A stretch of 64,000 bases of DNA from Myxococcales bacterium (lineage in GTDB: Bacteria; Myxococcota_A; Polyangia; GCA-2747355), in contig JAGQIK010000352.1 in assembly GCA_020431405.1 (NCBI GenBank), positions 5,316 through 69,315 on the forward strand, written 5' to 3'. The first letter of the stretch is position 1; the number at the start of each line of letters is the position of its first letter. Under the pieces are notes generated by a model. It saw nothing but the letters and a program-made list of their open reading frames with translations. It ran no database searches and was not told the DNA's origin. Below, piece by piece: positions 2,761-38,074 of this stretch. The position numbers and the translations under genes are program-made.

Positions 2761-2839
2761 TGGCGTGCAATTTCGGGTGCTTGAGGCGCAGTGGGATTTT
2801 TTCCGTCCACTTCGCGCGGTAGCGCCCACGAAGAAAAAG

Positions 2840-5011
2840 ATGCCCCGGTGTCGACGACAGCGTGGTGTGCGCGCGGCCTTCGGGGCGGCACTGACGCTCG
2901 CAGCAATGCTCGCCAGCGGGTGCAAGCTCGACCGCCCCAGCGCCACATCCGCCGAGCAGAAGCCGTGTCTGGCCTGCCACGAGGCGGATCGCGCGCGCGC
3001 CAAGTTCCCCGATCACCTCGCGACGGGCTATCCGACCAACTGCGAGCAGTGCCACTCGCAGAAGGAATGGAAGCCGGCCGCGTTCGACCACAGCGGCTTA
3101 CCGCTGGTCGGCGGCCACTCCAAGACCGACTGCGCCAGCTGCCACAGCAAAGAGCCGGTGCCCACCAAGTGCGTTGGCTGTCACGCCGAAGATCAGAAGC
3201 GCGGCCCCGGTCACACCGCGGCCGGTTTTAACACCGAGTGCCAGAGCTGCCACACGGTCATCGCGTGGAAGCCCGCCACCGACGTCGATCACAGCAAGTT
3301 CCCGTTCGAGGGCGGACACGCCAACGTGGCCTGCATCTCGTGTCACCCCGATCCGAGCCAGCCGTCCAAGCCCATCGGCACCACCTGCGTCGCCTGCCAC
3401 GAAAAGGACCGCAGCACGCCGAAGAGCCCCGACCATCTCAAGACGGGTTTCCCGACGACCTGCGAGAGCTGCCACACGATCCAGACCTGGAAGTCGGCCA
3501 CCTTCCCGCACTCCAAGCTGGCGCTGGTGGGCAAGCACCGCACGACGGCGTGCGCGAGCTGCCACACCGATCCGTCCAAGCCCGAGACAGCCAAGGGCAC
3601 GACGTGCGCCGAGTGTCACGCCGGCGACCGCCCCCAGGGCGCCACGGCTGATCGCCCCGATCACTTCGACGCGGCGCTGCCGCCCTGCCAGTACTGCCAC
3701 ACGGCCTTCGGCTGGAAGCCGGCGGCCAAGGACCACAGCAAGTTCCCGCTCACCGGCCAGCACGGCGGCGTGGCGTGCAGCACCTGCCACACCGATCCGA
3801 GCAAGCCGGACGTGCCCATCGCCAAGACCTGCGTTGGCTGCCACGAGGCCGATCGCTCGAAGCCGACGTTCCCCGATCACCGCGCCGTCGGCTTCTCCAC
3901 CGACTGCGACAGCTGCCACTCGACCAACGGCTGGAAGCCGGCGACGTTCGATCACGGACTCAAGTTCCCGCTCACCGGCGGCCACTCGGGCGTGACCTGC
4001 GCCAAGTGCCACGCCACCGAGCCGGTGCCCAAGACCTGCGTCGGCTGCCACCAGAACGACATCCCGAGCGGCGCCACCGCCTCGCGTCCCGATCACACGG
4101 CGTCAGGCTTCTCGACCGCGTGCAGCGACTGCCACGGCACGGGCGGCTGGAAGCCGGCGTCGTTCAACCACACCAAGTTCCCGCTGACGCAAGCGCACGC
4201 CGGCCCGGTCTGCACCGACTGCCACACCGATCCGCAAAACCCGTCGGTGCCGACGGGCACCACCTGCGAGCAGTGCCACCTCGGCGATCGTCCGCCGGCA
4301 GGCACCAACCCCGATCATCTCGTCGGCGGCTTCCCGACCACCTGCGAGAGCTGCCACACGCCTACGGTGTGGAAGGGCGCGACGTTCGATCACTCGGTCT
4401 ATCTGCCGCTGACCGGCAAGCACAGCATCGTGACCTGCACGCAGTGTCACAACACGACGCCGATGCCGACCAAGTGCGAGGGCTGCCACACGCCGCCGGC
4501 GACCAACCACACGGCGACGACCAACTGCGACAACTGCCACAGCGTCAACGGCTGGAAGCCGGCCGTCGTCGACCACAGCAAGTTCCCGCTGACGGGCAAG
4601 CACGCCAGCACCGCGTGCACGCAGTGCCACACCAACCCGAGTCAGCCTAGCGTGCCGACCGCGACGACGTGCGTGGGCTGCCACAACAGCGATCGCAGCA
4701 CGCCGACGATCCCGAACCATCTCGCCAATGGCTTCCCGACCGATTGCGCGCAGTGCCACAGCACCAACGGCTGGACGCCGGCGAGCTTCACGCACACCTT
4801 CCCGATCACGTCGGGCAAGCACAAGAACAAGCCCTGCAACAACTGCCACCTCGACCCCAACAACCTCAAGACCTACTCGTGTCTGGGGACCTGCCACGAG
4901 CACTCGCTGAGCAAGATGGACGACAAGCACAAGGGGCGCAGCGGCTACATCTCCGGCGACTTCATGCACTGCACCAACTCGGGCTGTCATCCCAACGGCA
5001 GGACGCCGTAG
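2840..5011 (+). CDS. multiheme c-type cytochrome lipoprotein (about 27 CXXCH plus 2 variant haem motifs, paired-CXXCH repeat architecture)
   Basis: ATG 2840 gives MPRCRRQRGVRAAFGAALTLAAMLASGC lipoprotein signal; about 50-aa repeat units each carrying two CXXCH (CLACH, CEQCH, CASCH, CVGCH ... CNNCH) and DHSKFPLTG spacers; upstream 25 codons of the track ORF are not coding. Confidence 0.8.
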   Translation: MPRCRRQRGVRAAFGAALTLAAMLASGCKLDRPSATSAEQKPCLACHEADRARAKFPDHLATGYPTNCEQCHSQKEWKPAAFDHSGLPLVGGHSKTDCASCHSKEPVPTKCVGCHAEDQKRGPGHTAAGFNTECQSCHTVIAWKPATDVDHSKFPFEGGHANVACISCHPDPSQPSKPIGTTCVACHEKDRSTPKSPDHLKTGFPTTCESCHTIQTWKSATFPHSKLALVGKHRTTACASCHTDPSKPETAKGTTCAECHAGDRPQGATADRPDHFDAALPPCQYCHTAFGWKPAAKDHSKFPLTGQHGGVACSTCHTDPSKPDVPIAKTCVGCHEADRSKPTFPDHRAVGFSTDCDSCHSTNGWKPATFDHGLKFPLTGGHSGVTCAKCHATEPVPKTCVGCHQNDIPSGATASRPDHTASGFSTACSDCHGTGGWKPASFNHTKFPLTQAHAGPVCTDCHTDPQNPSVPTGTTCEQCHLGDRPPAGTNPDHLVGGFPTTCESCHTPTVWKGATFDHSVYLPLTGKHSIVTCTQCHNTTPMPTKCEGCHTPPATNHTATTNCDNCHSVNGWKPAVVDHSKFPLTGKHASTACTQCHTNPSQPSVPTATTCVGCHNSDRSTPTIPNHLANGFPTDCAQCHSTNGWTPASFTHTFPITSGKHKNKPCNNCHLDPNNLKTYSCLGTCHEHSLSKMDDKHKGRSGYISGDFMHCTNSGCHPNGRTP

Positions 5012-5056: not shown

Positions 5057-5923
5057 CTAGTTTCTACAGCACAGCACGCCGCCGTTAGCCGCGGCGGTCT
5101 TGCGCACGGCGCTCGCCTCGCTGGTGTCGCCGCTGCCGCAGGCCCAGGTCGCGGGCAGCTGGCTGCACAGGTCGTGCGAGAAGCGATCGAGCACGCCGCA
5201 GGTGGTGGCGTCTGGCGCGGCGCCGACGGTGCCGCAGCCGAAGATATCGTTTTCGCCCTCGCCGCACATGGCGCCGCCTGGGCCGCTCTGCCGCACGACG
5301 AAGAACACCTGCGCGCCGGCAGCGAAGGCGGCGCCCGCGCAGCCGTTGCCGCCGCTGCGTGTTTTCACTTCGCTGGCGTCTTCGCAGACGTGCCAGCCGA
5401 CCTGGCAGAGATCGGCGACGTTGCAGTCTTTGCCGCTCGGATTCTGGCTGGCGTTGCCCGCCGCGCGGCCGCAAGCCGGCGCGCGCGTGTCGACGAGCCC
5501 CGGCAGCGACCAGCCGCCCGCGCAGGCGGCGATGTCGGGATAGCTCGCGGTCGCGCCGAAGCCTTCGCGCGTGCCGTCGGCGCAGCCGTTGTCATTGCGG
5601 CAGCGCCCGTCGGCGCCGCACTCGAAGGAGACGCAGTCGGCGGCCTGCGCGCAGCTGCCGCCCAGCGGGCAGGTCGGACAGAGCGCGCCGCCGCAGTCGA
5701 CGTCGGTCTCGTCGCCGTCGCGCCGCCCGTTGGCGCACGAGGGCGGGCCCGAGGGGAGCGTCGGCGTGGCGCTGCCGTCGGCGCTCGCGCCGCCGTCGCC
5801 GCTTTGTGCTGCGGCGTCGGCGCTCGGCGCGCCGGCTTCGTCGAACAGATAGTCGACGCTGCCGCTGCAGCCAGCGCAGGCGAAGGCGAAGACAAGCGCG
5901 GCGAAGGGGAGCGCTGCGCTCAC
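5057..5923 (-). CDS. Cys-rich secreted protein, translationally coupled to upstream DUF1552 gene
   Basis: GTG start at 5921-5923 overlaps TGA stop of upstream gene (GTGA); signal VSAALPFAALVFAFACAGCSGS; many Cys pairs (CGGALCPTCPLGGSC, CQVGWHVCED); the 40-aa N-terminal extension in track is rejected. Confidence 0.55.
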   Translation of the reverse strand: MSAALPFAALVFAFACAGCSGSVDYLFDEAGAPSADAAAQSGDGGASADGSATPTLPSGPPSCANGRRDGDETDVDCGGALCPTCPLGGSCAQAADCVSFECGADGRCRNDNGCADGTREGFGATASYPDIAACAGGWSLPGLVDTRAPACGRAAGNASQNPSGKDCNVADLCQVGWHVCEDASEVKTRSGGNGCAGAAFAAGAQVFFVVRQSGPGGAMCGEGENDIFGCGTVGAAPDATTCGVLDRFSHDLCSQLPATWACGSGDTSEASAVRKTAAANGGVLCCRN

Positions 5924-7251
5924 GTCAGGATGCCGGAGGCCTTGCCGCTGCTGGCGTAGGCGCCCGCACCGAACTTGGTCTTCTGCACGCCGTAGAGCTT
6001 GAGCAGGTCGAGGTGCAGGTCGGCGAGGTTGCGGCACTGATTCTTGTCGCTGACCTTGGCCGCGTCGACGCCGTAGATCTCCTGGCCGAGCTTCAGCTCG
6101 CCCGAGACGTTCTCGCTGGCGACCAGCAGCGGGATGTTGGCCGGCGAGTGCGAGCGACCGTCGGACATGTTGCTGCCGAGCAGCACGACGGTCTCCGAGA
6201 GCAGGCCGGCGGCCTTCATGCGCGTCAGCAGGTCAGCCCACAAGCCGACCTGGATCTGATTGATGCGGATCAGGCGCGACCAGTTGTTGTGCGCCGAGTC
6301 GTGCTGCTCGCCGGCGACCGTGCTCGTCGGCTGGTTGGGCCCGATGCCGTCGTTGTACATGATCGTCGCGGCGCGCGTGAGGTCGCACTGCATAGCGGCG
6401 ACGATGATCTTGTGCATGGTGCGAAAGTTGCGGACGTAGCTTTCGCCGGCGGTCTCGGCGGGGGGCTTCTGGCAGTTGGTCGCGAGCGCGGCGTTGGCCA
6501 GCTCGCCTTCGACCTCGCGGATGCTCGCGGCGTAGGCCTCGAGCCGCTGTTTGTCAGACGCGGCGAGGCGCGCTTTGTGGCGCTTGTACTGGTCGAGCAC
6601 GCCGTCGAGGATGCTCTGCCGGCGTTTGATCAGGTACGCCGCCTGTTGGTTGGAGACGTTGTCGCCGCTGCCGAAGACGCGCGTGTAGAGCTGCATCGGG
6701 CTGAGGATGTTGGAGATCGGCGTCGTGTCGTCACGCCAGGCGATGGAGTTGACGTAGTTGATCGAGCCGGTCTTGTCGTGGGCTGCGTCCCAGTTGGGCA
6801 CCTGGTTGTAGCCGACGTGCAGCGAGCGAATGCGCGCGTTGGGCGCGGTGTCGGCGATGTATTGGTCGAGGGTCTTGGCGCACTTCTGATAGTTGGGGTC
6901 TGCGCTCGGGTTGGACGCAGAGGTTGTGCCGACGGGCGACGACGAGAGAAACGCCGCCGTGCCGGCCCAGTGCACGTCGAAGTTAGCGACCGCGCGATAG
7001 CCGCGCAGCACGCTGACGTTGCCCTTGAGGCCGGCGTCGGCGATGGGCTTGAGCGCGCCGCCGAGCTGACCCGAGTAGCCCCAGTCACCGTTGTTGCCAT
7101 CGGGCATCGGCGCGCCGCTGCCGAAGAAGCAGCCGATGAAGCGCTTCTTCAGCGGCGCGGCGGCGTGCGCGGCGCGCTCGAGCGACGACTCGAGCGTGGG
7201 CAGCGCGATGCACACGCCGAGGCCTTTGAGCAGGGTACGTCTCGAGATCAT
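5920..7251 (-). CDS. DUF1552 family protein with Tat signal
   Basis: MISRRTLLKGLGVCIALP twin-arginine signal typical of DUF1552; about 440 aa; ATGA overlap with upstream DUF1592-family gene. Confidence 0.7.
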   Translation of the reverse strand: MISRRTLLKGLGVCIALPTLESSLERAAHAAAPLKKRFIGCFFGSGAPMPDGNNGDWGYSGQLGGALKPIADAGLKGNVSVLRGYRAVANFDVHWAGTAAFLSSSPVGTTSASNPSADPNYQKCAKTLDQYIADTAPNARIRSLHVGYNQVPNWDAAHDKTGSINYVNSIAWRDDTTPISNILSPMQLYTRVFGSGDNVSNQQAAYLIKRRQSILDGVLDQYKRHKARLAASDKQRLEAYAASIREVEGELANAALATNCQKPPAETAGESYVRNFRTMHKIIVAAMQCDLTRAATIMYNDGIGPNQPTSTVAGEQHDSAHNNWSRLIRINQIQVGLWADLLTRMKAAGLLSETVVLLGSNMSDGRSHSPANIPLLVASENVSGELKLGQEIYGVDAAKVSDKNQCRNLADLHLDLLKLYGVQKTKFGAGAYASSGKASGILT

Positions 7252-8993
7252 CTACTCGCTCCGTGGTCGACCTGGGTGAACGCCTTGCTGACCACGAGGC
7301 GCAGCACCATCTCGCGCAGCGTCGGCGCCTTTCCGTCATCGGCGAACGTCAAGTACTCGAGCAGCGGGCCGTCGATGTGCGTGTCCACCAGACGGCGCGT
7401 GGCGTAGATCGTCAGCTTCTGCGCGGCGCAGCTCTGAAACTCGGGCAGCGCGGCGAGCATGCTGTTGAGCTCGGCGAACGTCTTGAAGGGCTTTCCGAGC
7501 AGCTCGCTGTCGGTCTCTACCGGCAGGCCGGTGTCGGCGTACGCGCGGCGCAAGCGGCCGAACATGTCGAAGCCCTCGAGGCCGAGCCCGATCGGATCCA
7601 TGTACTGGTGGCAGCCGTAGCAGACGCTGCCCGAGTTGCGATGGCTGTTGGCGCGCTCCTTGACGGTCGCCGTCGGTGGGATGCTCTGCTGCACCTTCTG
7701 GATTTGCTCGAACAGTGACGCGTCAGGCAGCGGCACGACCTTGCAGAGGATGCGATCCTGCACCAGGCGCCCGCGATGGATCGGGTTGGTTCGCAGCTTC
7801 GACGCGCTGAGCGTGAGCCAGCTGCCCTGCTGCAGGATGCCGCCACGCTCGTCGGTGGCGACGCGCGTCAGCTCGTCGCCGAAGCTGCCCGCCAGGCTGT
7901 AGTGCGCGCCGAGGCGCTTGTTGATGTAGGCGAAGCCAGGACGCAGGATCGCCGTCACGGGTAGGTCGTTGACGAGCACGTCGTGCAGCGTGCGCCAGCT
8001 CTCTTCGTACATGTCGTGCTCGATGGAGCCGGGCTTGCTGCTGCCGAGCTGGCGAAAGTCGAACCACTGCCCCATGAAGCTCTTGATGAACGTCTCCGAG
8101 TTGGCGTCGATGAGCCGCTCGGCCTGCGCGCGCAGCACCTTGGGGTCGGCGAGCGAGCCGTCCTCGGCGTGCGACCACAGCTCGTCGTCAGGAAGCGACG
8201 CGCTGAACATCAGCGCCAGGCGGCTGGCCAGCTCGTAGCTGTCGAGATCGCGCACGCCGGCGAACTCGGGCGCGGGCGGCGCTTCGATGCGGTGAAGCAG
8301 CTGCGGTGCGAGCAGCAGCGTGCCGAGCGCGACGCGCATGGCGTCGACGAAGATCTCGGCGGGCTGCTGCAGATTCTGTCGGGCGAGCGCGAGCGCGCGG
8401 TCGTAGCTGGCCTGGAGCGCCGCGCGCTCGTCGGCGTCGAGCGGGCGGCCGTAGGCGCGTTTGGCAAGCGGCTCGAGGATCGACGCGGCGCAGCTCGCGT
8501 ACGCGAGCTCGGCTTCGCTTTGCGCCTTGCAGGTGAGCAGCGTGGCCTGCGCCGGCGCGGCGAGCACGAGGTCGAGGATCTTCTCGACCGTGTCGAGGCG
8601 ATCACGGATCGCTTTGGTGTCGAGGTCGGTCCACGGCACGGCGTCGAAGCCGGAAAACTGGGTGGTCGCCGTCCAAGCAAGCTGCAGATCGGGCGAGAGC
8701 TGCTGGCCGAGCACGGTCGACACCACGCGCAGGTACTCGTGGTTGGAGAGGTTGCGCACCATCGGTGGGCCCGCGGTGATGCGCGAGCGCAGCGTGGGCA
8801 GATCCGCCGCCGGCGGCTGGTTGGGCGCAGGCTGGTTGGGCGTGACGGGGTTGTTGTTGGCGGGGTCGCCGATGTCGCCCGATCCGCAGGCGACGAGGAG
8901 CGCGACGAGGGCGAGCAACGCGACCAGGCGCGCGTGGGGGCTGCTGCTGCGGCGGCGGGGCATTCGCGCCCACCAGAGCAACGGCCGTACCAC
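7248..8993 (-). CDS. DUF1592/DUF1588/DUF1585-family protein (planctomycete-type, partner of DUF1552), putative haem-binding CXXCH
   Basis: N-terminal lipoprotein-like signal (LALLALVALLVACGSGD); conserved GSVCYGCHQYMDPIGLGLEGFDMFGRLR block characteristic of DUF1588; alternative start at M11. Confidence 0.6.
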   Translation of the reverse strand: MVRPLLWWARMPRRRSSSPHARLVALLALVALLVACGSGDIGDPANNNPVTPNQPAPNQPPAADLPTLRSRITAGPPMVRNLSNHEYLRVVSTVLGQQLSPDLQLAWTATTQFSGFDAVPWTDLDTKAIRDRLDTVEKILDLVLAAPAQATLLTCKAQSEAELAYASCAASILEPLAKRAYGRPLDADERAALQASYDRALALARQNLQQPAEIFVDAMRVALGTLLLAPQLLHRIEAPPAPEFAGVRDLDSYELASRLALMFSASLPDDELWSHAEDGSLADPKVLRAQAERLIDANSETFIKSFMGQWFDFRQLGSSKPGSIEHDMYEESWRTLHDVLVNDLPVTAILRPGFAYINKRLGAHYSLAGSFGDELTRVATDERGGILQQGSWLTLSASKLRTNPIHRGRLVQDRILCKVVPLPDASLFEQIQKVQQSIPPTATVKERANSHRNSGSVCYGCHQYMDPIGLGLEGFDMFGRLRRAYADTGLPVETDSELLGKPFKTFAELNSMLAALPEFQSCAAQKLTIYATRRLVDTHIDGPLLEYLTFADDGKAPTLREMVLRLVVSKAFTQVDHGASR

Positions 8994-12516: not shown

Positions 12517-14019
12517 CTAGCGGCGCGTCGCGCGGCGCACAGCTTTGAGCAGGCGGCGCTGCAGCTTCGAGCGCGGCACGTAGGCGGCGATCTTGAGCGC
12601 CAGCGCGCGCGACATCTCGTCCATGGCGTCGTCGGGGCCGACGACGACCACCGGCAGGCCAGAGAGCTTGCCGTCCGCGAGCAGCGGCGCCAGCGCGTCG
12701 AGGGCCACGCGCGGCTGTGCGCCGAGATCGACGACGATCGCCTTCTCGTCGTCGGGCGTGATCGCGGCCGGGCTGTCGGCGCGCACGACGCGATAGCCCG
12801 CGCGGCGCAAGTGCGTTGTCGGCGCGTCGGGGGCGCCGGCCGCGCCGTGGTCGACGGCGATGATCTTGCCTTCGGCAGGCTCGGGCTCGATGCGCGGAGC
12901 GCGCGGCGGTGCGTCGCCGAGCACGGCGGAGCGCTCGGCGCGTGTGGCGGCGTAGGTGCCGGTCTTGCGCCGGTGCTGGTCCGAGCTGCGGCCTTCGATC
13001 TGATCGAGCGCCTCGAGCAAGCGCGCCTTGAGGGCGCCCGCGCTGGCGGGCCGCGTCTCGCGGCGCTTGCGCAGCGCCCAGAGCGTGATCTCGTCGAGAG
13101 CGCCGTGCACGTCCGGCGCGGCTTCACTTGGCGGCGAGGGGTCGTCGAGCACGTGCTTGAAGATCAGCGCCTGAACGGTCGGGGCCTTGAACGGCAGGCC
13201 GCCGGTGAGCAGCTCGTAGAGGATCACGCCGAGGGCGTAGATATCGGTCTGCGGCCCGATCGGCTCGCCGGCGCACTGCTCCGGGGCCATGTAGGCGGGC
13301 GTGCCAAGCACGTCGCCTTCGCGCGTGAGCTTGACCGCGCTGTCGGCGATCTTGGCGATGCCGAAGTCGACGATCTTCACGCGCTTGTCGGGGTCGGCGA
13401 GCATCACGTTTTCGGGCTTGAGATCGCGGTGCACGACGCCGGCGGCGTGCGCGACGTCGAGCGCGTCGCAGATCTCGCCCACGATGCGCACCGTCTCGGC
13501 CAGCGGCAGGCGCTTGTCGGGCGAGCTCTTGACCAGCGACTCGAGCGACTGACCCGATAGATACTGCATCGCGATGTAGCTCTGGTCGTTCCACTGGCCG
13601 TAGTCGTAGATCGCGACGATGCCGGGGTGCTCGAGCTTGGAGAGCGCCAGCGCCTCGCGCTCGAAGCGCAGCAGCCGATCACGGCTGTCGACGAGGTGGC
13701 GGTGCACGAACTTGATCGCCACGTCGCGTGCGAGGCCGATCTGCTCGGCGCGATAGACCAAGCCCATCGCGCCTTCGCCGAGGAACGAGCGGATACGGAA
13801 GCGCTTGTTGATCAGCTGTCCGATCAGCGCGTCGGTGCTGGCCGGCTCGGTGGTGGCGCTGCCGAGCCCACCCGTGCCGGCGTTGCCGCCGACGTTGGCG
13901 CCTTGAGCGAGCGTCTCGCCGGTGGACGGTGCCTGCGTTCGCTCGGGCGGCGGCAGGGTCACGCCGCAGCTGGGACAGTTGCCGTCGACGAGGTCGCGGC
14001 CGCAGCGCATGCAGATCAT
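12517..14019 (-). CDS. Ser/Thr protein kinase with N-terminal zinc ribbon and C-terminal receiver-like domain
   Basis: ATG 14017-14019 preceded by GAGAGGAAG RBS and overlapping cyclase TGA stop (ATGA); MICMRCGRDLVDGNCPSCG ribbon; kinase motifs HRDLKPEN, DFG, TPAYMAPE; C-terminal IIAVD...AIVVDLG...PVVVVG...LKIAAYVP pattern resembles a REC fold. Confidence 0.8.
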   Translation of the reverse strand: MICMRCGRDLVDGNCPSCGVTLPPPERTQAPSTGETLAQGANVGGNAGTGGLGSATTEPASTDALIGQLINKRFRIRSFLGEGAMGLVYRAEQIGLARDVAIKFVHRHLVDSRDRLLRFEREALALSKLEHPGIVAIYDYGQWNDQSYIAMQYLSGQSLESLVKSSPDKRLPLAETVRIVGEICDALDVAHAAGVVHRDLKPENVMLADPDKRVKIVDFGIAKIADSAVKLTREGDVLGTPAYMAPEQCAGEPIGPQTDIYALGVILYELLTGGLPFKAPTVQALIFKHVLDDPSPPSEAAPDVHGALDEITLWALRKRRETRPASAGALKARLLEALDQIEGRSSDQHRRKTGTYAATRAERSAVLGDAPPRAPRIEPEPAEGKIIAVDHGAAGAPDAPTTHLRRAGYRVVRADSPAAITPDDEKAIVVDLGAQPRVALDALAPLLADGKLSGLPVVVVGPDDAMDEMSRALALKIAAYVPRSKLQRRLLKAVRRATRR

Positions 14020-15753
14020 GCTTCCTCTCGCAGCTCGAAGATGCGCACCTGCTCCTTGCGCCCGGTGATATCGCGGGCGCCGAGGTCGACGACATCGAAG
14101 TCTTCGCCGAGCTCTTCGCGGGTGGCTTCGCTGATCAGGATCTGTCCCGGCTTGGCGAGCATCTCGAGGCGCGCCGCGATGTTTACCGTGTCGCCGATGG
14201 CCGTGTACTCCATGCGCTTTTCCGAGCCGAGGTTGCCGACGATCGCCGTCCCGGTGCTGATGCCGATACCGAGCTGGAGCTCGCGTCCGAACTCGTCGGC
14301 CCACTTGGCGTTGCCCGTCTCGAGCCACTCGATCATCTCGAGTGCCGCCAGCGCGGCGCGCTCGGCGTCGTCGTCGCGTGGCTCGGGCGCGCCAAAGACG
14401 GCCATCACGCAGTCGCCGATGAACTTGTCGACCATGCCGCCGTGGTTGAAGACAATGCCGGTGAGAAACGTGAACATCTCGTTGAGCAGCCGCCCGCACG
14501 ACGTCTTCGGGCGCGTGCCGCTCGGCGAGCGGCGTGAACGCCACCACGTCGGCGAACAGCACGGTGACCTTGGCGCGTTTTCCGCCGAGCTCGATCGACT
14601 GGCGCTCGTCGACGATCGCCTCGACCAGCGCGTCGCTGAGGTAGCGGCTCATGTTGGCGCGCACGCGCGCCTCGGCGACCAGCCGGTCGCGCGACTCTTC
14701 GAGGCTGCCGGCCATGCTGTTGAAGGAGCGCGCCAGCGCGCCGACCTCGTCGGAGGCGCGCGGCGTGACGCGCGCGGAGAAGTCACCGGACTCGACCAGA
14801 GCCGCGGCACGCGCGATGTCGGTGACCGGCTTGCCGATGCGCCGTCCGAGCAGCAGCCCGACGACCAGCGCGAGCAGCGCCACGACGCCCCCGGCGATCG
14901 CGGCGTAGCGCCAAGCAGCGCGCTCGGCGAGGTAGACCCAGGTGTTGCTCTGCTGCACGACGACGCCCCACTGCACGGCGGGCAGCGCCAGCAGGATCGT
15001 CAGCCGCCGCGCCGAGCCCTTGCCAAGATCGGCGGCGCGCGCGGTGGGGCGCGTCAAGCGCTGGTCGCTCTGGCGCAGCCACGCCATCAGCTCCTTGCTC
15101 GGCTTCGCCGCGCCCCCTCGCGCCAACACGCGCTGTTGGCGATCGACGACGTACAGACCACCACCGGCCTCCTTCTCGAGCCGTCGCTGCGCCGCCTCGC
15201 TGACGGCGTCGATCAGCGGCTTCATCGACACGCGGCTGCGCAAGAAGCCATACACGCGACCTTGCGCCGTCTTGATAGCGATGGTGTGCAAGAGATATGG
15301 CCGTGGTCCCTCGGGATGCTCTTCGATCAGCGGATCGCCCGCCTGCGCGGCGAGCTTGGTGCGAAGCGGCGCCGGCAGCGCGGTCGCGGCCTTCTTCTTG
15401 GCGCTCGAAGCGCCGGCCTGCAGCGCGAGCGCGAGCTCGCCGTCGGGGCTGAAGACCTCGACACGATCGAGCAGATGGGTGCCGCGCAGCCTGCTGCGCA
15501 CCATCGCGACGCGCTGCTCCTGGGTCAGCGAGGTCTCCGTCAACGCGGCGCTGATATCGCCGATGGTGTTGCGAACGCGGCTGAGAAACACGTCGACCTT
15601 CACGCGCACGCTCTCGGCCGTGGCGGTGCGCAGCACGCGAGCCGAGGCGGCCATGTTGTCGGCGTGCTCGTTGGCGAGCACGTAGGCCAGGCCGCCGACG
15701 CTGAGCAGCGAGACGCCGAGCAGCGCGAGCGCGATCTTGATCCACAGCTTCAC
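14016..15753 (-). pseudogene. membrane HAMP-domain adenylate/guanylate cyclase interrupted by a 1-nt insertion frameshift (or sequencing error) in the catalytic domain
   Basis: GTG start 15753; two TM segments flanking an about 240-aa periplasmic region, HAMP, then VTVLFADVVAFTPLAERHAPEDVV in frame A; the catalytic domain continues in frame B (LLNEMFTFLTGIVFNHGGMVDKFIGDCVMAVFGAP...ISTGTAIVGNLGS..YTAIGDTVNIAARLE) to TGA 14016; the frames join at a GGG run (plus-strand CCC 14493-14495), and removing one G restores EDVVRRLLNEMF. Confidence 0.6.
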
Positions 15754-15772: not shown

Positions 15773-18007
15773 TCACCGTTTCGCGCCGGCGGTCTTGATC
15801 ACGACGAACCGCACGCGGCGGTTGGCCGCGCGGCCTGCGGCGCTCTTGTTGCTCTTGACCGGCTTGGTCGGACCGAAGCCGACGGCGACCAGCCGGTGCG
15901 CGGCGATGCCGTTCTTGACGAGCACGCGCTTGACCTGCTCGGCGCGCCGCTGCGAGAGGTCGACGTTGAGCTCCTTGTCGCCTTGCGAGTCGGTGTGCCC
16001 CTCGATGCGCAGCTTGCGCACCTGCCAGTTGGCCTTGAGCACGCGTGCGACCTGACTGAGCAGGCTCATCGAGCGCGGCGAGATCGTGTCACGCCCGCTG
16101 GCGAAGTAGACCTTCTCGCTGATCGAGACCTCGCCCTTGACGAGCTTGGCCTTGCCCACGCCCTCGTCGGGGCAGCCGTCGTCATCCTTGATGCCGTTGA
16201 CCGTCTCGGGCTGCAGCGGACACTTGTCCACCGCGTCGGGGATGCCGTCGTGGTCGTTGTCCGGATCAGGACAGCCGTCTTTGTCTTGGAAGCCATCGTG
16301 ATCCTCGGGCTCGTAGGGGCACTTGTCCTGCGGGTTGGGCACGCCGTCGACATCGGGGTCGAGGTCGCCGCGGCTCGCTGCTGCGATGCTGTCCGGCGCG
16401 GCCGGCTTGGCGTAGCGATAGCGCTGGCGCGGGCGCTGCGGGGGCGCCTTGCCCTCGCGCACCAGCTTGGCGTAGGCCTTGGCGGCCTTCTCATTGTAGC
16501 GGATCAAGACCTGCGTGCGACCGAGCTTGCCGCCGAGCCAGTAGACGTGGCAGGCGAGCATCGAGGCGGCGGCTTGCGGCGGCGCGTGCAGCGTGGCGCG
16601 GTAGGTGCCGGCCCCGAGCGCCTTGATCGGCAGCGCGCCGTCGCCGCAGTTGACGGTCAAGCCCGGCACGAACGTCGCCTTGCCGTTGTCGAGGCTCGCG
16701 ACCACGGTGACGTAGGTCTTGCCGCCGCCGTCGATGACGCGGTCGCGGATCGCGAAGCTGGCCTTGATGCCGATCACGTGCAGCGTGACGAACTTCGCCG
16801 GGAAGCCCTGACCCATCACGCCGACGCGCACGCGCCCGCGGCCTTTGACCAGCACCGGCTTGGCGCTGAAGGTCGAGCCCACCGAGACGGTGAAGCCGTC
16901 GGCGGCGATCCAGGCGGCGCCGACCACCTGGATGCGGCCGCGCTTGTCGCGCAGCAGGCGCCGGCTGCTGCGCAGCGTGACCACGCGCAGCATCAGCGAT
17001 TGCGACGAGCGGCTCGAAAGACCGCTGTCGTCGACGGCCTGTACGCGCGCCCAGTAGGTGCCCGGCTTGAGCCGCTCGGCACGAAAGCGCTTGATGCCAG
17101 CGCCCATGGTGACCTCGGCGAGGGGCGCGCGAAGCTGCTTGTTGTTGGCGAGCACGAAGTGGTAGCGCTTCGCACCCGACACCGCGCCCCAGCTCGCCTC
17201 GAAGCGCGCCAGCTCGCCGGGCAGCACCACTTTCATCGCCCGCGTGCCACCGGCCCAGCGCGGCGCGCCGAGCAGGCGACGGGGCTTGGGTGGGCGCTGG
17301 CCGCGCGCCACGGTGACGCCGTGGTTGGTCGGCACCTTCACCGTGCGACCGCGCGCGGCGACCATCGCGTAGCCGTCGAACACCGAGATCGACGAGCGCT
17401 TGCGCTTGTCGACCGCGATCTGCGTGTCGCGCGAGCGCAGCTCGACGGTGGCCGCGGGTGTCTTGACCGTCAGCTTGGCGCGCTTGTCGAGCGCGGCCAG
17501 GCCGCCGCGCACGACACCCTGCTCGAGGCGCACCTCGCGCTGTTTGGAGACGCGCAGGTGGCTGCGCCGCGCGCTGCCGAAGATCACGAGCAGCGCGCGC
17601 TCGCGCAGGCGCAGCTTGGAGCGATCGATGAACGCGATCTCGGCCGAGGCACCATTGCCGGTGTTGACCTTGTAGAGGCGCCACAGCGATTGGTTGCGGC
17701 GCGCGCGCTGCCAGTACGGCGCGCGCGGCCCCTTGGCTTTGACGTTGTTGTGCAGCCACGCCACCTTGCCGGGCGCTGGCGCGGCGTCGAGCAGCAGCTG
17801 GGTGCCTGGCTGGAGCAGGTGCGGCGGCGGTCCGAGCTTGTTGTGCTTGTGGATGACGGTGTAGCGCTTGCCCTCGCCGATGAAACGCTCGGCGATGTTC
17901 CAACACGTGTCTCCGCGCTGGACGATGTACTTCTGCAGCTTGCGGGCGTGGGCGCTCGTGCTCGTCAGCACGGCCATCAGCAGTGTAAGTGCTCGAATCA
18001 GCGGCAT
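15773..18007 (-). CDS. LysM / FecR-like / thrombospondin type-3 repeat / OmpA-domain outer-membrane protein
   Basis: Signal peptide; LysM block YIVQRGDTCWNIAERF; TSP3 Asp-rich repeats DKDGCPDPDNDHDGIPDAVDKCP; C-terminal OmpA/MotB peptidoglycan-binding block (LRIEGHTDSQGDKELNVDLSQRRAEQVKRVL...NRRVRFVV). Confidence 0.8.
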   Translation of the reverse strand: MPLIRALTLLMAVLTSTSAHARKLQKYIVQRGDTCWNIAERFIGEGKRYTVIHKHNKLGPPPHLLQPGTQLLLDAAPAPGKVAWLHNNVKAKGPRAPYWQRARRNQSLWRLYKVNTGNGASAEIAFIDRSKLRLRERALLVIFGSARRSHLRVSKQREVRLEQGVVRGGLAALDKRAKLTVKTPAATVELRSRDTQIAVDKRKRSSISVFDGYAMVAARGRTVKVPTNHGVTVARGQRPPKPRRLLGAPRWAGGTRAMKVVLPGELARFEASWGAVSGAKRYHFVLANNKQLRAPLAEVTMGAGIKRFRAERLKPGTYWARVQAVDDSGLSSRSSQSLMLRVVTLRSSRRLLRDKRGRIQVVGAAWIAADGFTVSVGSTFSAKPVLVKGRGRVRVGVMGQGFPAKFVTLHVIGIKASFAIRDRVIDGGGKTYVTVVASLDNGKATFVPGLTVNCGDGALPIKALGAGTYRATLHAPPQAAASMLACHVYWLGGKLGRTQVLIRYNEKAAKAYAKLVREGKAPPQRPRQRYRYAKPAAPDSIAAASRGDLDPDVDGVPNPQDKCPYEPEDHDGFQDKDGCPDPDNDHDGIPDAVDKCPLQPETVNGIKDDDGCPDEGVGKAKLVKGEVSISEKVYFASGRDTISPRSMSLLSQVARVLKANWQVRKLRIEGHTDSQGDKELNVDLSQRRAEQVKRVLVKNGIAAHRLVAVGFGPTKPVKSNKSAAGRAANRRVRFVVIKTAGAKR

Positions 18008-19571: not shown

Positions 19572-20546
19572 CTAGCCGAGCGGGGACTGTCCGGCCACGA
19601 CCAGAATCCAGCGCAGCGCGAGGCCGCCGACGAGCAGCAGCACGGGCGCGACGAGCGCGGCCCTGCGCCGGCGCAGCACCTCGATGCTCTCCAGCGCCAG
19701 CGGCACCACCAGGCCGGCGACGACGACCAGCGCCCAGAAGATCGCCGTGAAGCGGCCGCCAAGAAACAGCGCCGCAGCGCGCTGGCCAGCCTGCGCGCCG
19801 CTGACCAGCCCGACGAAAAGCAGCGCCAGCAGCGCCAGCTCGACGCCGATCGCGATCATGTCCCAGTTGCGCAGCAGCGCGTGCTCGCGATGGGTCAGTG
19901 GCAGCAGCATCGTCAGCGCCGCGCCGGTAGAGAAGCCGGAGACGAGAAAAAGGGGGCCCAGCAGCGACGAGCTCCACAGCGCGCGCGCCCCGAGGGCGCC
20001 GAGCAGCACGCCGGTGTAGGCGCCGAGCGCGACGCCAAGCGCGATGTTGGCCCACGTCAACGTGCGCTGGCGCTGCTGGGCCCAGCTGTGTAGGCCTTCG
20101 AGGATGCGGCGCAGCGCGCCGATACGCAGCTTCGCTGCGAGCCAATCACGCTCGCTCTCGGTCGTCTGTGACAGCCCGAAGAGCAGCGTGGCCGGGTAGA
20201 TCGCCAGCAGGATCCAGGCGCCCCACGACATCGGCGAGCTCAGCTGAAACGTCGTGTAGAAGCGCAGCACGTGGCGCTTGAGGTCGAGGTCGAGCAGCAG
20301 CGCGAACATGCCGAGCCACAGCGCGGCCGGCGCGGCGAGGATCATCAGCCGTCCCCAGGGCGAGCGCTGCGACGTCTCACTCGCGTCGGCGCCGCCGTCG
20401 GCGAAGCGGCGCGCCAGCAGCGCCGAGACGATCATCACGCCCGCGGCGAGGCCGCCGAGAAACAGATAGACGGGGATCTCCCAGTGCCACACGGGCTGGC
20501 CCAGCGCGCTCAGTGGGTTGTGATGCACGCGTACGATCTCGTTCAT
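19572..20546 (-). CDS. NrfD/PsrC-family polysulfide-reductase-type integral membrane anchor
   Basis: MNEIVRVHHNPLSALGQPVWHWEIPVYLFLGGLAAG typical NrfD/PsrC N-terminus; about 8 predicted TM segments; last gene of the arsR-psrAB-yeeE-psrC operon. Confidence 0.7.
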   Translation of the reverse strand: MNEIVRVHHNPLSALGQPVWHWEIPVYLFLGGLAAGVMIVSALLARRFADGGADASETSQRSPWGRLMILAAPAALWLGMFALLLDLDLKRHVLRFYTTFQLSSPMSWGAWILLAIYPATLLFGLSQTTESERDWLAAKLRIGALRRILEGLHSWAQQRQRTLTWANIALGVALGAYTGVLLGALGARALWSSSLLGPLFLVSGFSTGAALTMLLPLTHREHALLRNWDMIAIGVELALLALLFVGLVSGAQAGQRAAALFLGGRFTAIFWALVVVAGLVVPLALESIEVLRRRRAALVAPVLLLVGGLALRWILVVAGQSPLG

Positions 20547-20547
20547 G

Positions 20548-21765
20548 TCAGCACCCTCCGCCCTTCTTCTTTTTGCGCTTGGGCGCGTAGCCTTTGATGC
20601 TCGCCGGCGGCGGCGGCGCGGCCTTGCGGCCTGTCATCGCCGCCACCAGCGCGCTGCGAAAAGTCCACTCCGCGCGCGCCGCGGCGTCTGCGCCGGCAGC
20701 CAGCGCGGCCGGTTTGGTCAGCGCGTAGGCCTTCCAGCCGGCAAACCCGCCGCGCAGGCGCAGCACCTTTCCCGGATAGCGCGTCACTGCCGGCGGCAGC
20801 ACGGCCAGATCGCCGGCGCCGACGAGCACCAGATCGCGCTTGCCGGCGGCGTAGGCCAAGCCCAGCGCGCCGAGCTTCGTCTCGGGCACGCACTCGGCGC
20901 CCGGCACGCGGCGTTTGGCGCACGCCGCGGCGTCGCGCAGGTCGAGCACGCGCAGCGTCCACGGCCGGTCGAGCACGCGGCGCGCCAGCTCGGCTTGCGT
21001 GATGCTGCCGAGCCTGGCCGGCGCGGCCTTGGGGCGCTCCGGGGCGGCGAGCGCGACGAGCCCGAGCACGGCGAAGCCGCCGATGCCGCCGAAGATCAGT
21101 CGCCGCGGCCGAGGCGCCCAGTCGACCTCGAGCGCACGGCTCTGGCCGTCGTCGACGACGCCGCCTTCGCGCCGCCGCCGCGCGAGCACGTGCTCGAGCT
21201 TCTCGGCGCCGATGAACATGCCCACCGCCATCAACGCCACCAGCAGCGCCAGCACCGGCGCCGGGATCGAAAACACGTCGTAGAGGAAGAGGTGCCCCAG
21301 CTCGCTCGACTTGTAGAAGTCGCCCACCAGCGGCCACGCCTCGGCGAAGAGCACCGAGCCGATCACCACGCCGCCGATGGTGAACATGCCGTCGATGCTG
21401 CCCGACGCGGCGGCCACCACCGAGGTGCCCGGGCAGTAGCCCGAGATGATGAAGCCCACACCGAGCAGAAAGCCGCCCAGCGCCATCGGCCAGAGCCAAG
21501 TGAAGCTCGCCGTCTGCTCGGCGAGCGGCCTGAGGTCGATCACGCCGGCGCCGTGCGCGATCATCACGCCCAGCATCGCCGTCACGATCGCCGAGAACAT
21601 CACCTTGAAGACGCGCATGTCGGAGCCGTAGAACTGCGCCGCCAGCTTGTCGGCACGGCCGAAGCCCGCGCGCTCGAGCACGAAGCCGAAGCCAAAGCCG
21701 AGCAGCAGCGCCACCAGCAGGCCGAGCTCGCGATGCTCGGCGAGAAACGTTGCTATCGCGCTCAT
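20548..21765 (-). CDS. YeeE/YedE-family sulfur-transport membrane protein (second half-transporter) fused to C-terminal rhodanese-like domain
   Basis: ATG 21763-21765 overlaps upstream TGA (ATGA); ISGYCPGTS motif (YeeE/YedE signature Cys loop); C-terminal LRVLDLRD...DLVLVGAGD...LRGGFAGWK rhodanese-fold pattern lacking the catalytic Cys; 62 upstream codons of the track ORF rejected. Confidence 0.65.
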   Translation of the reverse strand: MSAIATFLAEHRELGLLVALLLGFGFGFVLERAGFGRADKLAAQFYGSDMRVFKVMFSAIVTAMLGVMIAHGAGVIDLRPLAEQTASFTWLWPMALGGFLLGVGFIISGYCPGTSVVAAASGSIDGMFTIGGVVIGSVLFAEAWPLVGDFYKSSELGHLFLYDVFSIPAPVLALLVALMAVGMFIGAEKLEHVLARRRREGGVVDDGQSRALEVDWAPRPRRLIFGGIGGFAVLGLVALAAPERPKAAPARLGSITQAELARRVLDRPWTLRVLDLRDAAACAKRRVPGAECVPETKLGALGLAYAAGKRDLVLVGAGDLAVLPPAVTRYPGKVLRLRGGFAGWKAYALTKPAALAAGADAAARAEWTFRSALVAAMTGRKAAPPPPASIKGYAPKRKKKKGGGC

Positions 21766-22298
21766 CGCCACTGCCTCCTGACGAAGTACGCCATGGCGTA
21801 GCCGCCGGCGAAGACCGCCAGCATGAAGACCCACGAGCCGGCCGACAGCATCGCGCCGCCCGAAAGGGCCTGCCCCGACGTGCAGCCGCGCGCCAGACGC
21901 GCAGCGATGCCCATCACGATGCCGCCGCCCAGCGCCGCAGCGAGCCGCCACGGCACGGAGATGTTCGGCCCACGGACGATCTTCTTCTTCAGCCGTCCCG
22001 CGCTGTAGGCGGCGACGAGGGCGCCGAGCAGCACGCCGAGCACCTCGAAGACGAGCCAGTTGTCGAGCGGGTGGTGCCCGCCCGCCGAGAGCGTCGCCAT
22101 GTGCGGGTTGCTCGCGACGTGCGCCGGCGCCAGCGCCGACAGCGCCGTCACGCCCACGCGGTTGGCCGCGCCCGACGCGCCCAGCCCGTGCGCCGCGACG
22201 AGCAGGGAGGCGAGCAGCACCAGCCCCAGCGCGACGCCGGCGACGTACGGGTTCCAGAAGCGTTCGGCGCGAGCGGTTGTTTCAGCTTGCTCTGGCAT
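21762..22298 (-). CDS. YeeE/YedE-family sulfur-transport membrane protein (first half-transporter)
   Basis: AGGAGGAAAG RBS 8 nt upstream of ATG 22296-22298; ARGCTSG signature Cys loop; 4-5 TM segments. Confidence 0.7.
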   Translation of the reverse strand: MPEQAETTARAERFWNPYVAGVALGLVLLASLLVAAHGLGASGAANRVGVTALSALAPAHVASNPHMATLSAGGHHPLDNWLVFEVLGVLLGALVAAYSAGRLKKKIVRGPNISVPWRLAAALGGGIVMGIAARLARGCTSGQALSGGAMLSAGSWVFMLAVFAGGYAMAYFVRRQWR

Positions 22299-22311
22299 CA
22301 CCGCTTTCCTC

Positions 22312-22872
22312 CTAGGACAAGAAGAACAGGTGCGGCTCGGTGCCCTGCTCCGGTTTGAGGGTTTCGTGCTGGCGGCGCGCCAGCAGCTTGGCCAGCGAGC
22401 TCTCGGGGTCGCCGAGATCGCCGAAGACGAGAGACTCCGTCGGGCAAACCTCGACGCACGCCGGGTCTTTGCCCTTGGCCACGCGATGCATACAGAAGGT
22501 GCACTTGTCGACGTAGCCTTCGGGCCGCACGAAGCGCGCGCCGTAGGGACACGCCGCGATGCACGCCTTGCAGCCGGTGCACTTGTCGGGGTCGACCTGC
22601 ACCGCGCCGCCTTCGCTGTAGAAGCTGGCGCCCGTCGGGCAGTTGCTCACGCACGGCGCGTCGGCGCAGTGCATGCAGCGCGACGAGACGATGCGCTGCT
22701 TGAGGTCGGGGAAGGCGCCGCGGATCTCGATCTCGACCCAGCAGCGGAAGCCGCCCTCGGGCACGTCGTTTTCGGCTTTGCAGGCGAGCACGCACGCGTT
22801 GCAGCCAACACACTTGCGCATATCCATCGCCATCGCGTAGCGCTTCTTGCGTTTGCGGAGGATGGCGCTCAT
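22312..22872 (-). CDS. 4Fe-4S ferredoxin-type electron-transfer subunit (PsrB/PhsB/DmsB family)
   Basis: Four Cys clusters (CVGCNACVLAC, CMHCADAPCVSNCP, CTGCKACIAACP, CTFCMHRVAKG..CVEVCP); ATGA overlap with catalytic-subunit stop. Confidence 0.85.
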   Translation of the reverse strand: MSAILRKRKKRYAMAMDMRKCVGCNACVLACKAENDVPEGGFRCWVEIEIRGAFPDLKQRIVSSRCMHCADAPCVSNCPTGASFYSEGGAVQVDPDKCTGCKACIAACPYGARFVRPEGYVDKCTFCMHRVAKGKDPACVEVCPTESLVFGDLGDPESSLAKLLARRQHETLKPEQGTEPHLFFLS

Positions 22873-37276: not shown

Positions 37277-38074
37277 CTACTGGCAGCCGAGCAGCTCGTT
37301 GAGGCAGGCGTTGACGACGCAGTTCTGGCACTGATTGGAGGCGGGGATCACGCAGTCGCTCTGGCACTGGTTGGCGATGGCGCCGGTGATGCACGTGTTC
37401 ATCACGCTGAACTGCTGGCGCGCCACCGCCGAGCCGCGCGAGATGCAGCCGCCGATGCAGAGCTGGTCGACGGGGGGGCACTTGTCGATGCAGTCGAGGA
37501 TCTCGCCGCAGGTCAGCGGCGCGCCGAGGTCGGCGCTGCCCATGTCGCCGCCGCCGTCGCCACCCGCGCCGCCGTCGACGAGCACGCCGCCGTCGGGCGC
37601 GGCGATGGTGCCGTAGCAGATGCCGACCTCGCTGGCGCAGGCGGTCTGAACGCAGCCGTCGCACTGCGCGGGCGTGCCGCTCTGGCAGGGTGTGGCACAG
37701 GCGCCGACCAGCGCGCCGTTGATGCAGGCCGCCATGGTGTTGAAGCGCGCGAGGCCGACGGGCGTTCCCGAAGCGAGACAGCCTTGCAGGCACGCGGTGT
37801 CGGCGGGCGAGCAGCTCTGCAGACAGCCCGCGATCTTGGCGCAGTCGGTGAGCGGCGCCGCATCGGGCAGCGGTCCGAAGTCGGCGCGCGCGTCAACGGC
37901 CGGTGCGTCGTCTGCGGAGTCGGGCGTCGCGTCGAGGCCGCTGTCGACGCCGGGTGCGTCGCCCGCGGCGTCGCGCGTGTCAACCGCCGCGTCGAGCCGC
38001 GCGTCGCCTGGCGCCGATGCGTCACCGCAGGCTGCGACCACGAGCAGGATGCCGAGCGGAATGGCGAGCTTCAT
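37277..38074 (-). CDS. Cys-rich lipoprotein
   Basis: Lipobox ILLVVAACGDAS; Asp/Ala-rich linker; two duplicated about 75-aa Cys modules (CAKIAGCLQSCSP..CLQGC.. / CGEILDCIDKCPP..CIGGC..). Confidence 0.6.
   Translation of the reverse strand: MKLAIPLGILLVVAACGDASAPGDARLDAAVDTRDAAGDAPGVDSGLDATPDSADDAPAVDARADFGPLPDAAPLTDCAKIAGCLQSCSPADTACLQGCLASGTPVGLARFNTMAACINGALVGACATPCQSGTPAQCDGCVQTACASEVGICYGTIAAPDGGVLVDGGAGGDGGGDMGSADLGAPLTCGEILDCIDKCPPVDQLCIGGCISRGSAVARQQFSVMNTCITGAIANQCQSDCVIPASNQCQNCVVNACLNELLGCQ

Follow-up and report, generated by a model that had tools for sequence, protein, structure and literature searches.

The cytochrome gene and its product

The 64,000-nucleotide stretch analysed here (the window) derives from a metagenome-assembled genome (MAG) of Myxococcota and carries near its left end the gene for a large, repetitive multihaem c-type cytochrome, which is the subject of this report. 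The gene occupies 2840-5011 on the + strand: the open frame extends over 2765-5011, and the ATG at 2840 gives a product of 723 aa according to both the listing of open reading frames (ORFs) and the translation. The G+C content at third codon positions (GC3) of the coding sequence (CDS) is 0.89, similar to that of neighbouring genes, so the ORF looks native and coding. The protein contains exactly 27 CXXCH motifs, with two variants near its C-terminus, CLGTCH (a CX3CH motif, residues 681-686) and CTNSGCH (a CX4CH motif, residues 711-717). Six-frame translation of the window gives 34 CXXCH in total and, as 27 of the 34 are concentrated in this one ORF, chance is no explanation for them. The initial annotation of this DNA, made from its letters, had reported the same ORF, motif count and variants in a Myxococcota-like genome, and all of this agrees with the translation and with the organism name under which the protein is deposited, 'Myxococcales bacterium'.

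The lipobox given in that annotation is also upheld. The N-terminus, which reads MPRCRRQRGVRAAFGAALTLAAMLASG and then Cys, begins with a basic n-region, continues in a hydrophobic core and ends in a lipobox-type Cys (...LAAMLASG-C28). Cys28 is invariant in an alignment with three orthologues, P0024, P0057 and P0058, and each of these, as well as a further relative, P0002, has a hydrophobic N-terminal stretch terminating in Cys. With signal peptide, lipobox and invariant Cys the product is, by sequence, a bacterial lipoprotein, lipidation itself being a prediction. The deposited protein (NCBI MCA9668648.1, 'hypothetical protein', Myxococcales bacterium) corresponds to residues 23-723 and starts at Met23 (position 2906), so that the signal peptide and the lipobox context are lost. 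Because the orthologues show the hydrophobic stretch up to the Cys, and because Cys28 is invariant, we prefer the start at 2840 together with the lipoprotein reading; the NCBI start is probably a miscall. The mature protein of 696 aa has a computed mass of ~74 kDa as apoprotein and ~92 kDa with 29 haems. A sigma-70 consensus promoter was not found in the 5' region (2761..2839), from which the gene may be transcribed.

Repeat units, haem ligands and the C-terminal cap

The spacing of successive CXXCH motifs cycles through 25, 30 and then 13 or 18 residues. When the protein is cut at every third motif it falls into nine units of 65-76 aa (~72), mutually 41-64% identical, with the consensus TC.GCH..DR.....PDH...GF.T.C..CH....WKPA.FDHSKFPLTG.H....C..CH followed by a linker that is either short (EPVP) or long (DPS.P..P). 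The tandem-repeat build of a large multihaem c-type cytochrome had been recognized correctly from the start, but the unit had been taken for a paired-haem one of about 50 aa; it is instead a c7-type triple-haem unit present nine times, and the Paired_CXXCH_1 profile (PF09699 / TIGR01905) stays, at 11.1 bits (E = 0.34), below its gathering cut-off of 20.6.

Outside the CXXCH motifs there are exactly three His in each unit, 27 in total, and the mature protein contains three Met only. Because of the three extra His per unit and the scarcity of Met, all the haems are read as bis-His; most simply they are probably bis-His throughout and non-catalytic. In the alignment with P0024, P0057 and P0058 (51-54% identity) the 29 haem motifs, the 27 distal His and the cap residues H688, M693 and H697 are all invariant.

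The C-terminal 44 residues resemble a degenerate first two-thirds of a unit, in the order CLGTCH, ..MDDKH.., CTNSGCH. The three orthologues likewise have CX3CH as the first motif of this segment and an ordinary CXXCH as the last, and the consensus of the wider family has two CXXCH motifs here; a regular expression finds the segment in 89 of 265 relatives and in 17 related loci. From this sequence pattern we conclude that the two variant motifs are a conserved di-haem C-terminal cap. With the 27 CXXCH and the two cap motifs the protein is likely to bind ~29 haems, a density of about one haem per 25 residues.

Stability of the repeat number

The nucleotide repeats had raised the expectation that the gene would be prone to recombination and assembly collapse. 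The DNA words quoted in support of this do exist, at 3740, 3962 and 4580 and not at 3741, 3961 and 4591 as had been given, but the proneness itself is not apparent. The DNA copies of the unit are 60-78% identical to each other, the longest exact repeat within the CDS is 21 nt, and Tandem Repeats Finder reported no array of the unit in the gene. P0024, P0057 and P0058 come from other, independent metagenomes and have 28 CXXCH and one CX3CH each in 700-703 aa (723 aa here); they are colinear with this protein over all nine units and the cap. The best unit-unit identity within the protein is 51-59%, no higher than between units of different orthologues, and shows no recent homogenisation or gene conversion. 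It might still be supposed that units were collapsed or expanded in a short-read assembly and that the count of 27 motifs is unreal, as the gene does derive from a MAG and repeat number does evolve: in P0002 (1010 aa, 63% identity) a four-unit block of 296 aa was copied in tandem, the copies being 69% identical, so that this protein has 13 units, and one of its haem motifs has decayed to CVDCN, so the number of repeats changes over evolutionary time. Given the divergence of the repeats and the three orthologues that keep nine units and the cap, we regard the DNA repeats as old and assembly collapse as very unlikely, and an artefactual repeat number is hardly credible. No one-to-one positional orthology of the units could be traced across the orthologues, as each unit is about equally similar (45-60%) to all units.

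Family assignment and breadth

Pfam assigns the protein to Cytochrome_C7 (PF14522) with 124.1 bits against a gathering cut-off of 24.8 (E = 2e-36) over eight stretches; Cytochrom_c3_2 and Cytochrom_CIII also score above their cut-offs, more weakly than Cytochrome_C7. Two NCBIfam models remain below theirs, nanowire_3heme (TIGR04257; 15 bits against 40, E = 0.021) and HmcA, for the c3 polymers of sulfate reducers (NF045713; 26.8 bits against 400). The MtrC/MtrF domain II/IV family (Mtrc-MtrF_II-IV_dom, PF22113) is not among the Pfam matches at E <= 1, and a direct sequence search of PDB gave no match. A profile built from the nine units, by comparison, matches the Geobacter dodecahaem cytochrome GSU1996 (3OV0) with E = 1.6e-6 over all four domains and in one consistent register, in which haems 2 and 3 of a unit and haem 1 of the next unit correspond to haems 1, 2 and 3 of a c7-type domain. 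Read in this register, the chain would comprise one leading haem, nine c7-type modules, the ninth of them closed by the CX3CH motif, and one trailing haem. The same profile also matched UndA (2.3e-5), 1RWJ (0.009), cytochrome c3 (~0.01) and 3OUQ; none of its matches was labelled PpcA or c7. By the homology of its tandem triple-haem modules the predicted protein is a c7-type domain polymer.

Relatives are numerous. A word-indexed search gave more than 5000 at E <= 1e-5 among 8000 scored candidates, and an exhaustive search gave 3932 representatives at 50% clustering, with 604 at E <= 1e-30. The largest member has 94 CXXCH in 2321 aa and keeps the ratio of ~25 residues per haem. Surveys have already noted cytochromes with tens to >100 haem motifs and have suggested electron-transfer or capacitor roles for them (PMC5566968; PMC11495043; bioRxiv 10.1101/2024.01.05.574438). 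As a c7-type repeat, 'nanowire-like' cytochrome, the protein described here is an unremarkable member of a widespread and uncharacterised family and does not represent a new kind of system.

Genes beside the cytochrome in related loci

Related loci were collected by a search seeded with four orthologues in data holding one genome per species, and all 80 listed loci are MAGs. Their labels include Myxococcota/Kofleriaceae, Acidobacteriaceae, Gemmatimonadales, Saprospiraceae, Melioribacteraceae, Sideroxydans/Gallionellaceae, Steroidobacterales and Chloroflexia; the cap-bearing cytochromes come, among others, from MAGs with the labels Myxococcales, Acidobacteriaceae, Gemmatimonadales, Saprospiraceae and Melioribacteraceae. 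The ORFs of 84 related loci were clustered to find families of neighbours. One family, of iron-sulfur (Fe-S) flavoproteins and membrane proteins, stands near the cytochrome in 73 of the 84, always on the same strand and in 63 loci with a gap of <=300 nt. The flavoprotein is membrane-anchored and has two 4Fe-4S motifs and a Pyr_redox_3/Pyr_redox_2 FAD/NAD(P) domain; fusion proteins bring into the same cluster a membrane protein of ~300 aa with two WX3HX13H motifs. An ORF with two such motifs is found in 67/84 loci and usually ends just upstream of the cytochrome gene. Two WX3HX13H motifs are the signature of the PCC3/PCC4 inner-membrane protein, read by He et al. (2017; PMC5566968) as di-haem-b and ferric-reductase-like. 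Operons of a PCC3-like kind, which encode a five-helix di-haem-b inner-membrane protein and the flavoprotein, are the usual setting of the relatives' cytochrome genes. In several Myxococcota loci this membrane domain is fused to the 2x[4Fe-4S] FAD/NAD(P) flavoprotein in NOX-like single polypeptides of 750-980 aa beside the genes for multihaem cytochromes (Table 1).

In 32 loci, most of them proteobacterial, a TPR/beta-barrel-like protein of ~715 aa is encoded together with the cytochrome. The locus of P0024 (L005) has the order flavoprotein, 559-aa signal-peptide protein (581-2257, +) and orthologous 29-haem cytochrome. The 559-aa protein, which has weak homologues in L011, L014 and L026 and none in the window, may be a beta-barrel, in which case the three genes would form a porin-cytochrome-like trio.

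Surroundings in the window

The upstream neighbour of the cytochrome gene (2041-2760, +) encodes a Cys-rich, Kazal-like lipoprotein with a marginal Kazal_1 match; it was considered as a conserved partner and ruled out by its absence from the orthologue loci. The next gene downstream (5057-6037, -) is convergent and is followed by DUF1552 and DUF1592 genes and by genes of unrelated functions. The DUF genes form a DUF1552 + DUF1592/DUF1588/DUF1585 gene pair (5920-8993, -), the second protein of which has a single CXXCH. Several ORFs in the window encode Cys-rich proteins of a secreted or lipoprotein-like type, each with 25-35 Cys (2041-2760, +; 5057-6037, -; 37277-38074, -; 59397-60608, +); they are not conserved beside the cytochrome in the orthologue loci.

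No ORF with two WX3HX13H motifs, and so no counterpart of the PCC3 membrane protein, was found among the window ORFs of >100 aa, and tblastn with the porin-like families of the related loci found nothing in the window, which likewise shows no PCC3-type pairing of a porin with a second large cytochrome. Directly beside the cytochrome gene there is no type II secretion gene, porin or second cytochrome. The nearest other cytochrome, 27 kb off, is a 5-haem protein: a c-type cytochrome of 724 aa (32405-34579, +) that has five CXXCH, matches Cytochrome_C554, starts with a lipoprotein-like N-terminus and ends in TPR repeats. Genes for cytochrome c maturation were absent among the window ORFs scanned with Pfam, a result that is uninformative for the genome.

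Two further groups of genes were observed. A Psr/Phs-like respiratory operon (19572-25106, -; subunits in Table 1), 15 kb from the cytochrome gene, suggests anaerobic sulfur-compound respiration. A gene for a 1078-aa HAMP and Ser/Thr kinase protein (12517-15753, -) adjoins one for a LysM-FecR-OmpA protein (15773-18007, -).

Table 1. Features of the cytochrome gene, of the Psr/Phs-like operon in the window, and of NOX-like fusions in related loci (TAT, twin-arginine translocation; positions preceded by a locus label refer to that locus).
Feature	Position	Strand	Remarks
Intergenic 5' region, comparatively A+T-rich	2761..2839	+	between Kazal-like lipoprotein gene and cytochrome start codon; sequence read
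Cytochrome precursor CDS, 723 aa	2840..5011	+	translation, GC3, identity to MCA9668648.1
Predicted lipoprotein signal peptide (residues 1-27) and lipobox Cys28 (codon 2921-2923)	2840..2923	+	+2 residue = Lys29
Triple-haem unit 1 (residues 40-107)	2957..3160	+	
Triple-haem unit 2 (residues 108-179)	3161..3376	+	
Triple-haem unit 3 (residues 180-252)	3377..3595	+	
Triple-haem unit 4 (residues 253-327)	3596..3820	+	
Triple-haem unit 5 (residues 328-396)	3821..4027	+	
Triple-haem unit 6 (residues 397-472)	4028..4255	+	
Triple-haem unit 7 (residues 473-542)	4256..4465	+	
Triple-haem unit 8 (residues 543-607)	4466..4660	+	first-to-second-haem segment shortened
Triple-haem unit 9 (residues 608-679)	4661..4876	+	
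Putative di-haem cap (residues 680-723)	4877..5008	+	CLGTCH 4880-4897, CTNSGCH 4970-4990; invariant H688, M693, H697
Weak terminator-like hairpin just 3' of stop codon	5043..5056	+	consensus match only
NrfD membrane subunit	19572-20546	-	Psr/Phs-like operon
YeeE/YedE-type sulphur-transport protein	20548-21951	-	Psr/Phs-like operon
4Fe-4S subunit	22312-22872	-	Psr/Phs-like operon
TAT-signal molybdopterin subunit	22869-25106	-	Psr/Phs-like operon
NOX-like fusion	L011 10401-12740		beside multihaem cytochrome genes
NOX-like fusion	L014 10893-13232		beside multihaem cytochrome genes
NOX-like fusion	L016 3017-5368		beside multihaem cytochrome genes
NOX-like fusion, other loci	L037, L056, L065, L066, L074, L077, L082		

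Discussion

We propose, as the reading that we find reasonably probable, that the product of the gene is a non-catalytic c-type cytochrome, anchored by lipid and carrying ~29 low-spin bis-His haems, that acts as an electron wire or capacitor of the cell envelope. The nine c7-type triple-haem modules and the di-haem cap would form a continuous chain of closely spaced haems in a rod-shaped molecule. Scaled from GSU1996, for which PMC10138318 gives 12 haems in 12 nm, the chain could be ~25-30 nm long, a length that by this scaling would be of the order of the width of the periplasm. Electrons would cross the periplasm by hopping along it, or it would store them in the manner of a capacitor. Relatives suggest how it might be charged and discharged: entry would be through the di-haem-b membrane protein, driven by the NAD(P)H-linked Fe-S flavoprotein, and exit would be to an outer-membrane partner. 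Extracellular electron transfer or metal reduction, the function offered in the initial annotation, is plausible for the family as a whole.

Several points weigh against this proposal. The partner families, namely the membrane protein, the flavoprotein and the beta-barrel-like protein, are all absent from the 64-kb window, which covers only 2.8 kb upstream of the gene, and the closest orthologues do not share a conserved gene context: in the locus of P0057 (L001) the flavoprotein lies 6.4 kb upstream of the cytochrome, and in that of P0058 (L002) the contig begins at the cytochrome gene. The AlphaFold model of the full-length protein has a predicted local distance difference test score (pLDDT) of 71 and a predicted template modelling score (pTM) of 0.29, and that of the C-terminal 181 aa a pLDDT of 79 and a pTM of 0.61; Foldseek found nothing significant in PDB for either model. 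With models of moderate confidence and no Foldseek match, it is the sequence profiles that carry the assignment to the c7 fold. The distal His also differ in placement, one before and two after the first haem of a module here as against two before and one after in c7 (PpcA). Finally, we know of no member of the family that has been studied experimentally.

The location of the protein bears directly on its role. The +2 residue, which follows the lipid-modified Cys, is Lys29. Lys at +2 marks inner-membrane lipoproteins in Myxococcus xanthus, where 8/12 have it, and the signal peptide of MXAN1176 keeps mCherry in the inner membrane of that species (PMC3222651). Among the orthologues the +2 residue varies between Thr, Ser, Gln and Lys, so this retention signal is not conserved. 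By analogy with M. xanthus, anchoring at the periplasmic face of the inner membrane appears at least as likely as a position on the cell surface. The protein could alternatively stand on the outer face of the outer membrane, as terminal reductase or conduit for minerals or metals in extracellular electron transfer; its lipoprotein signal is like that of the surface cytochromes of the MtrC/OmcA type, relatives are found in porin-cytochrome-like clusters, and at +2 the proteins P0024, P0057 and P0002 carry Thr, Ser or Gln in place of Lys. We nevertheless think a surface position unlikely, and the one assumed in the initial annotation is not supported here: Lys29 follows the inner-membrane signature of M. 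xanthus, the window offers no porin or other conduit partner, neither type II secretion gene nor second cytochrome adjoins the gene, and the MtrC/MtrF-domain family does not appear in the Pfam table. The hematite-binding motif Ser/Thr-Pro-Ser/Thr is not enriched either (2 observed, 2.7 expected).

That the protein works on its own in the periplasm, storing electrons or buffering redox state, and gives respiratory flexibility in oxic/anoxic switching with no crossing of the outer membrane, seems to us a little less probable again. The separation of the gene from conduit partners in the window, L001 and L002 would suit such a role, as would the capacitor proposed for GSU1996 and inner-membrane anchoring through Lys29, but in most relatives the gene is closely packed in an operon with a transmembrane electron-input module, often together with a beta-barrel-like protein, and the orthologue locus L005 keeps three genes adjacent. 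A catalytic multihaem enzyme in the manner of the nitrite, hydroxylamine, sulfite or tetrathionate reductases or oxidases is very improbable: such enzymes exist and a Psr-like molybdoenzyme is encoded 15 kb off, but each haem motif is matched by an invariant distal His, there is no CXXCK motif or sequence sign of an open coordination site, the closest match to a catalytic family is weak (nitrite reductase chain 8bcx, E = 0.0018, 22 bits) with other enzyme chains at E >= 0.01 and HmcA far below its cut-off, and known active-site domains do not show such a repetitive build.

With the envelope wire or capacitor as the preferred reading, a more speculative extension can be formulated, to which we give little weight at present. 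The cap-bearing cytochromes and their partner might together constitute an NAD(P)H-linked envelope conduit distinct from both Mtr and the Geobacter Pcc systems, in which the 29-haem lipoprotein would be the periplasm-spanning wire. The partner in several Myxococcota relatives could be the NOX-like fusion, with its di-haem-b membrane domain, two [4Fe-4S] and FAD/NAD(P) domain. If this were true, Polyangia-type myxobacteria would be capable of extracellular electron transfer.

Very large repetitive multihaem cytochromes are now seen in many uncultured bacteria of soil, sediment and wastewater and, to our knowledge, none outside Geobacter has been characterised. For the window itself the finding is an ordinary one. 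It does provide a cleanly resolved example, with nine modules, ~29 predicted haems and an architecture conserved across Polyangia-like genomes, and it allows a public 'hypothetical protein' with a short start to be corrected to a lipoprotein c7-type multihaem cytochrome. The useful lead comes from the relatives, whose genes almost always share an operon with those for a di-haem-b membrane protein and an Fe-S flavoprotein; this points to a possible route of electron entry.

Comparison with known systems

Cytochromes of the PCC3 type are highly repetitive, with 20-85 haem motifs (He et al. 2017, PMC5566968), and relatives of the present protein, including those in Sideroxydans and Gallionellaceae MAGs, resemble them in adjoining a two-WX3HX13H ORF and a TPR/beta-barrel-like protein. 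The window differs in having no such membrane protein, porin or nearby second large cytochrome, and the proteobacterial PCC3 cytochromes are without the C-terminal cap and are only 29-34% identical to this protein. The Shewanella cytochromes MtrC, OmcA and UndA likewise combine a lipoprotein signal with multiple bis-His haems, and UndA gave the second-best profile match (2.3e-5). They carry 10-11 haems arranged in a staggered cross and have beta-barrel domains, whereas here there is neither such a Pfam family nor an mtrAB-like neighbour. With cytochrome c7 (PpcA family) and tetrahaem c3 the protein has bis-His haems and Pfam families in common; those proteins are single modules of 70-118 aa in contrast to the nine modules per chain in this one, and the profile match to c3 is marginal (~0.01).

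The closest parallels are in Geobacter sulfurreducens, where GSU1996 and GSU0592 (12 haems each) and GSU2210 (27 haems) are polymers of c7-type triple-haem domains with short linkers and ~25 residues per haem, as here. PMC10138318 describes GSU1996 as a 12-nm haem wire or capacitor with one His-Met haem per domain, and gives the 27 haems of GSU2210. The present protein departs from the GSU1996 type in its predicted lipid anchor, its di-haem cap and the different placement of the distal His along the module, and it has three invariant His per unit and no conserved Met in the units that would correspond to the His-Met haem. With these differences, GSU1996 (3OV0) is the nearest solved relative of the protein, and a role as wire or capacitor is proposed for both.

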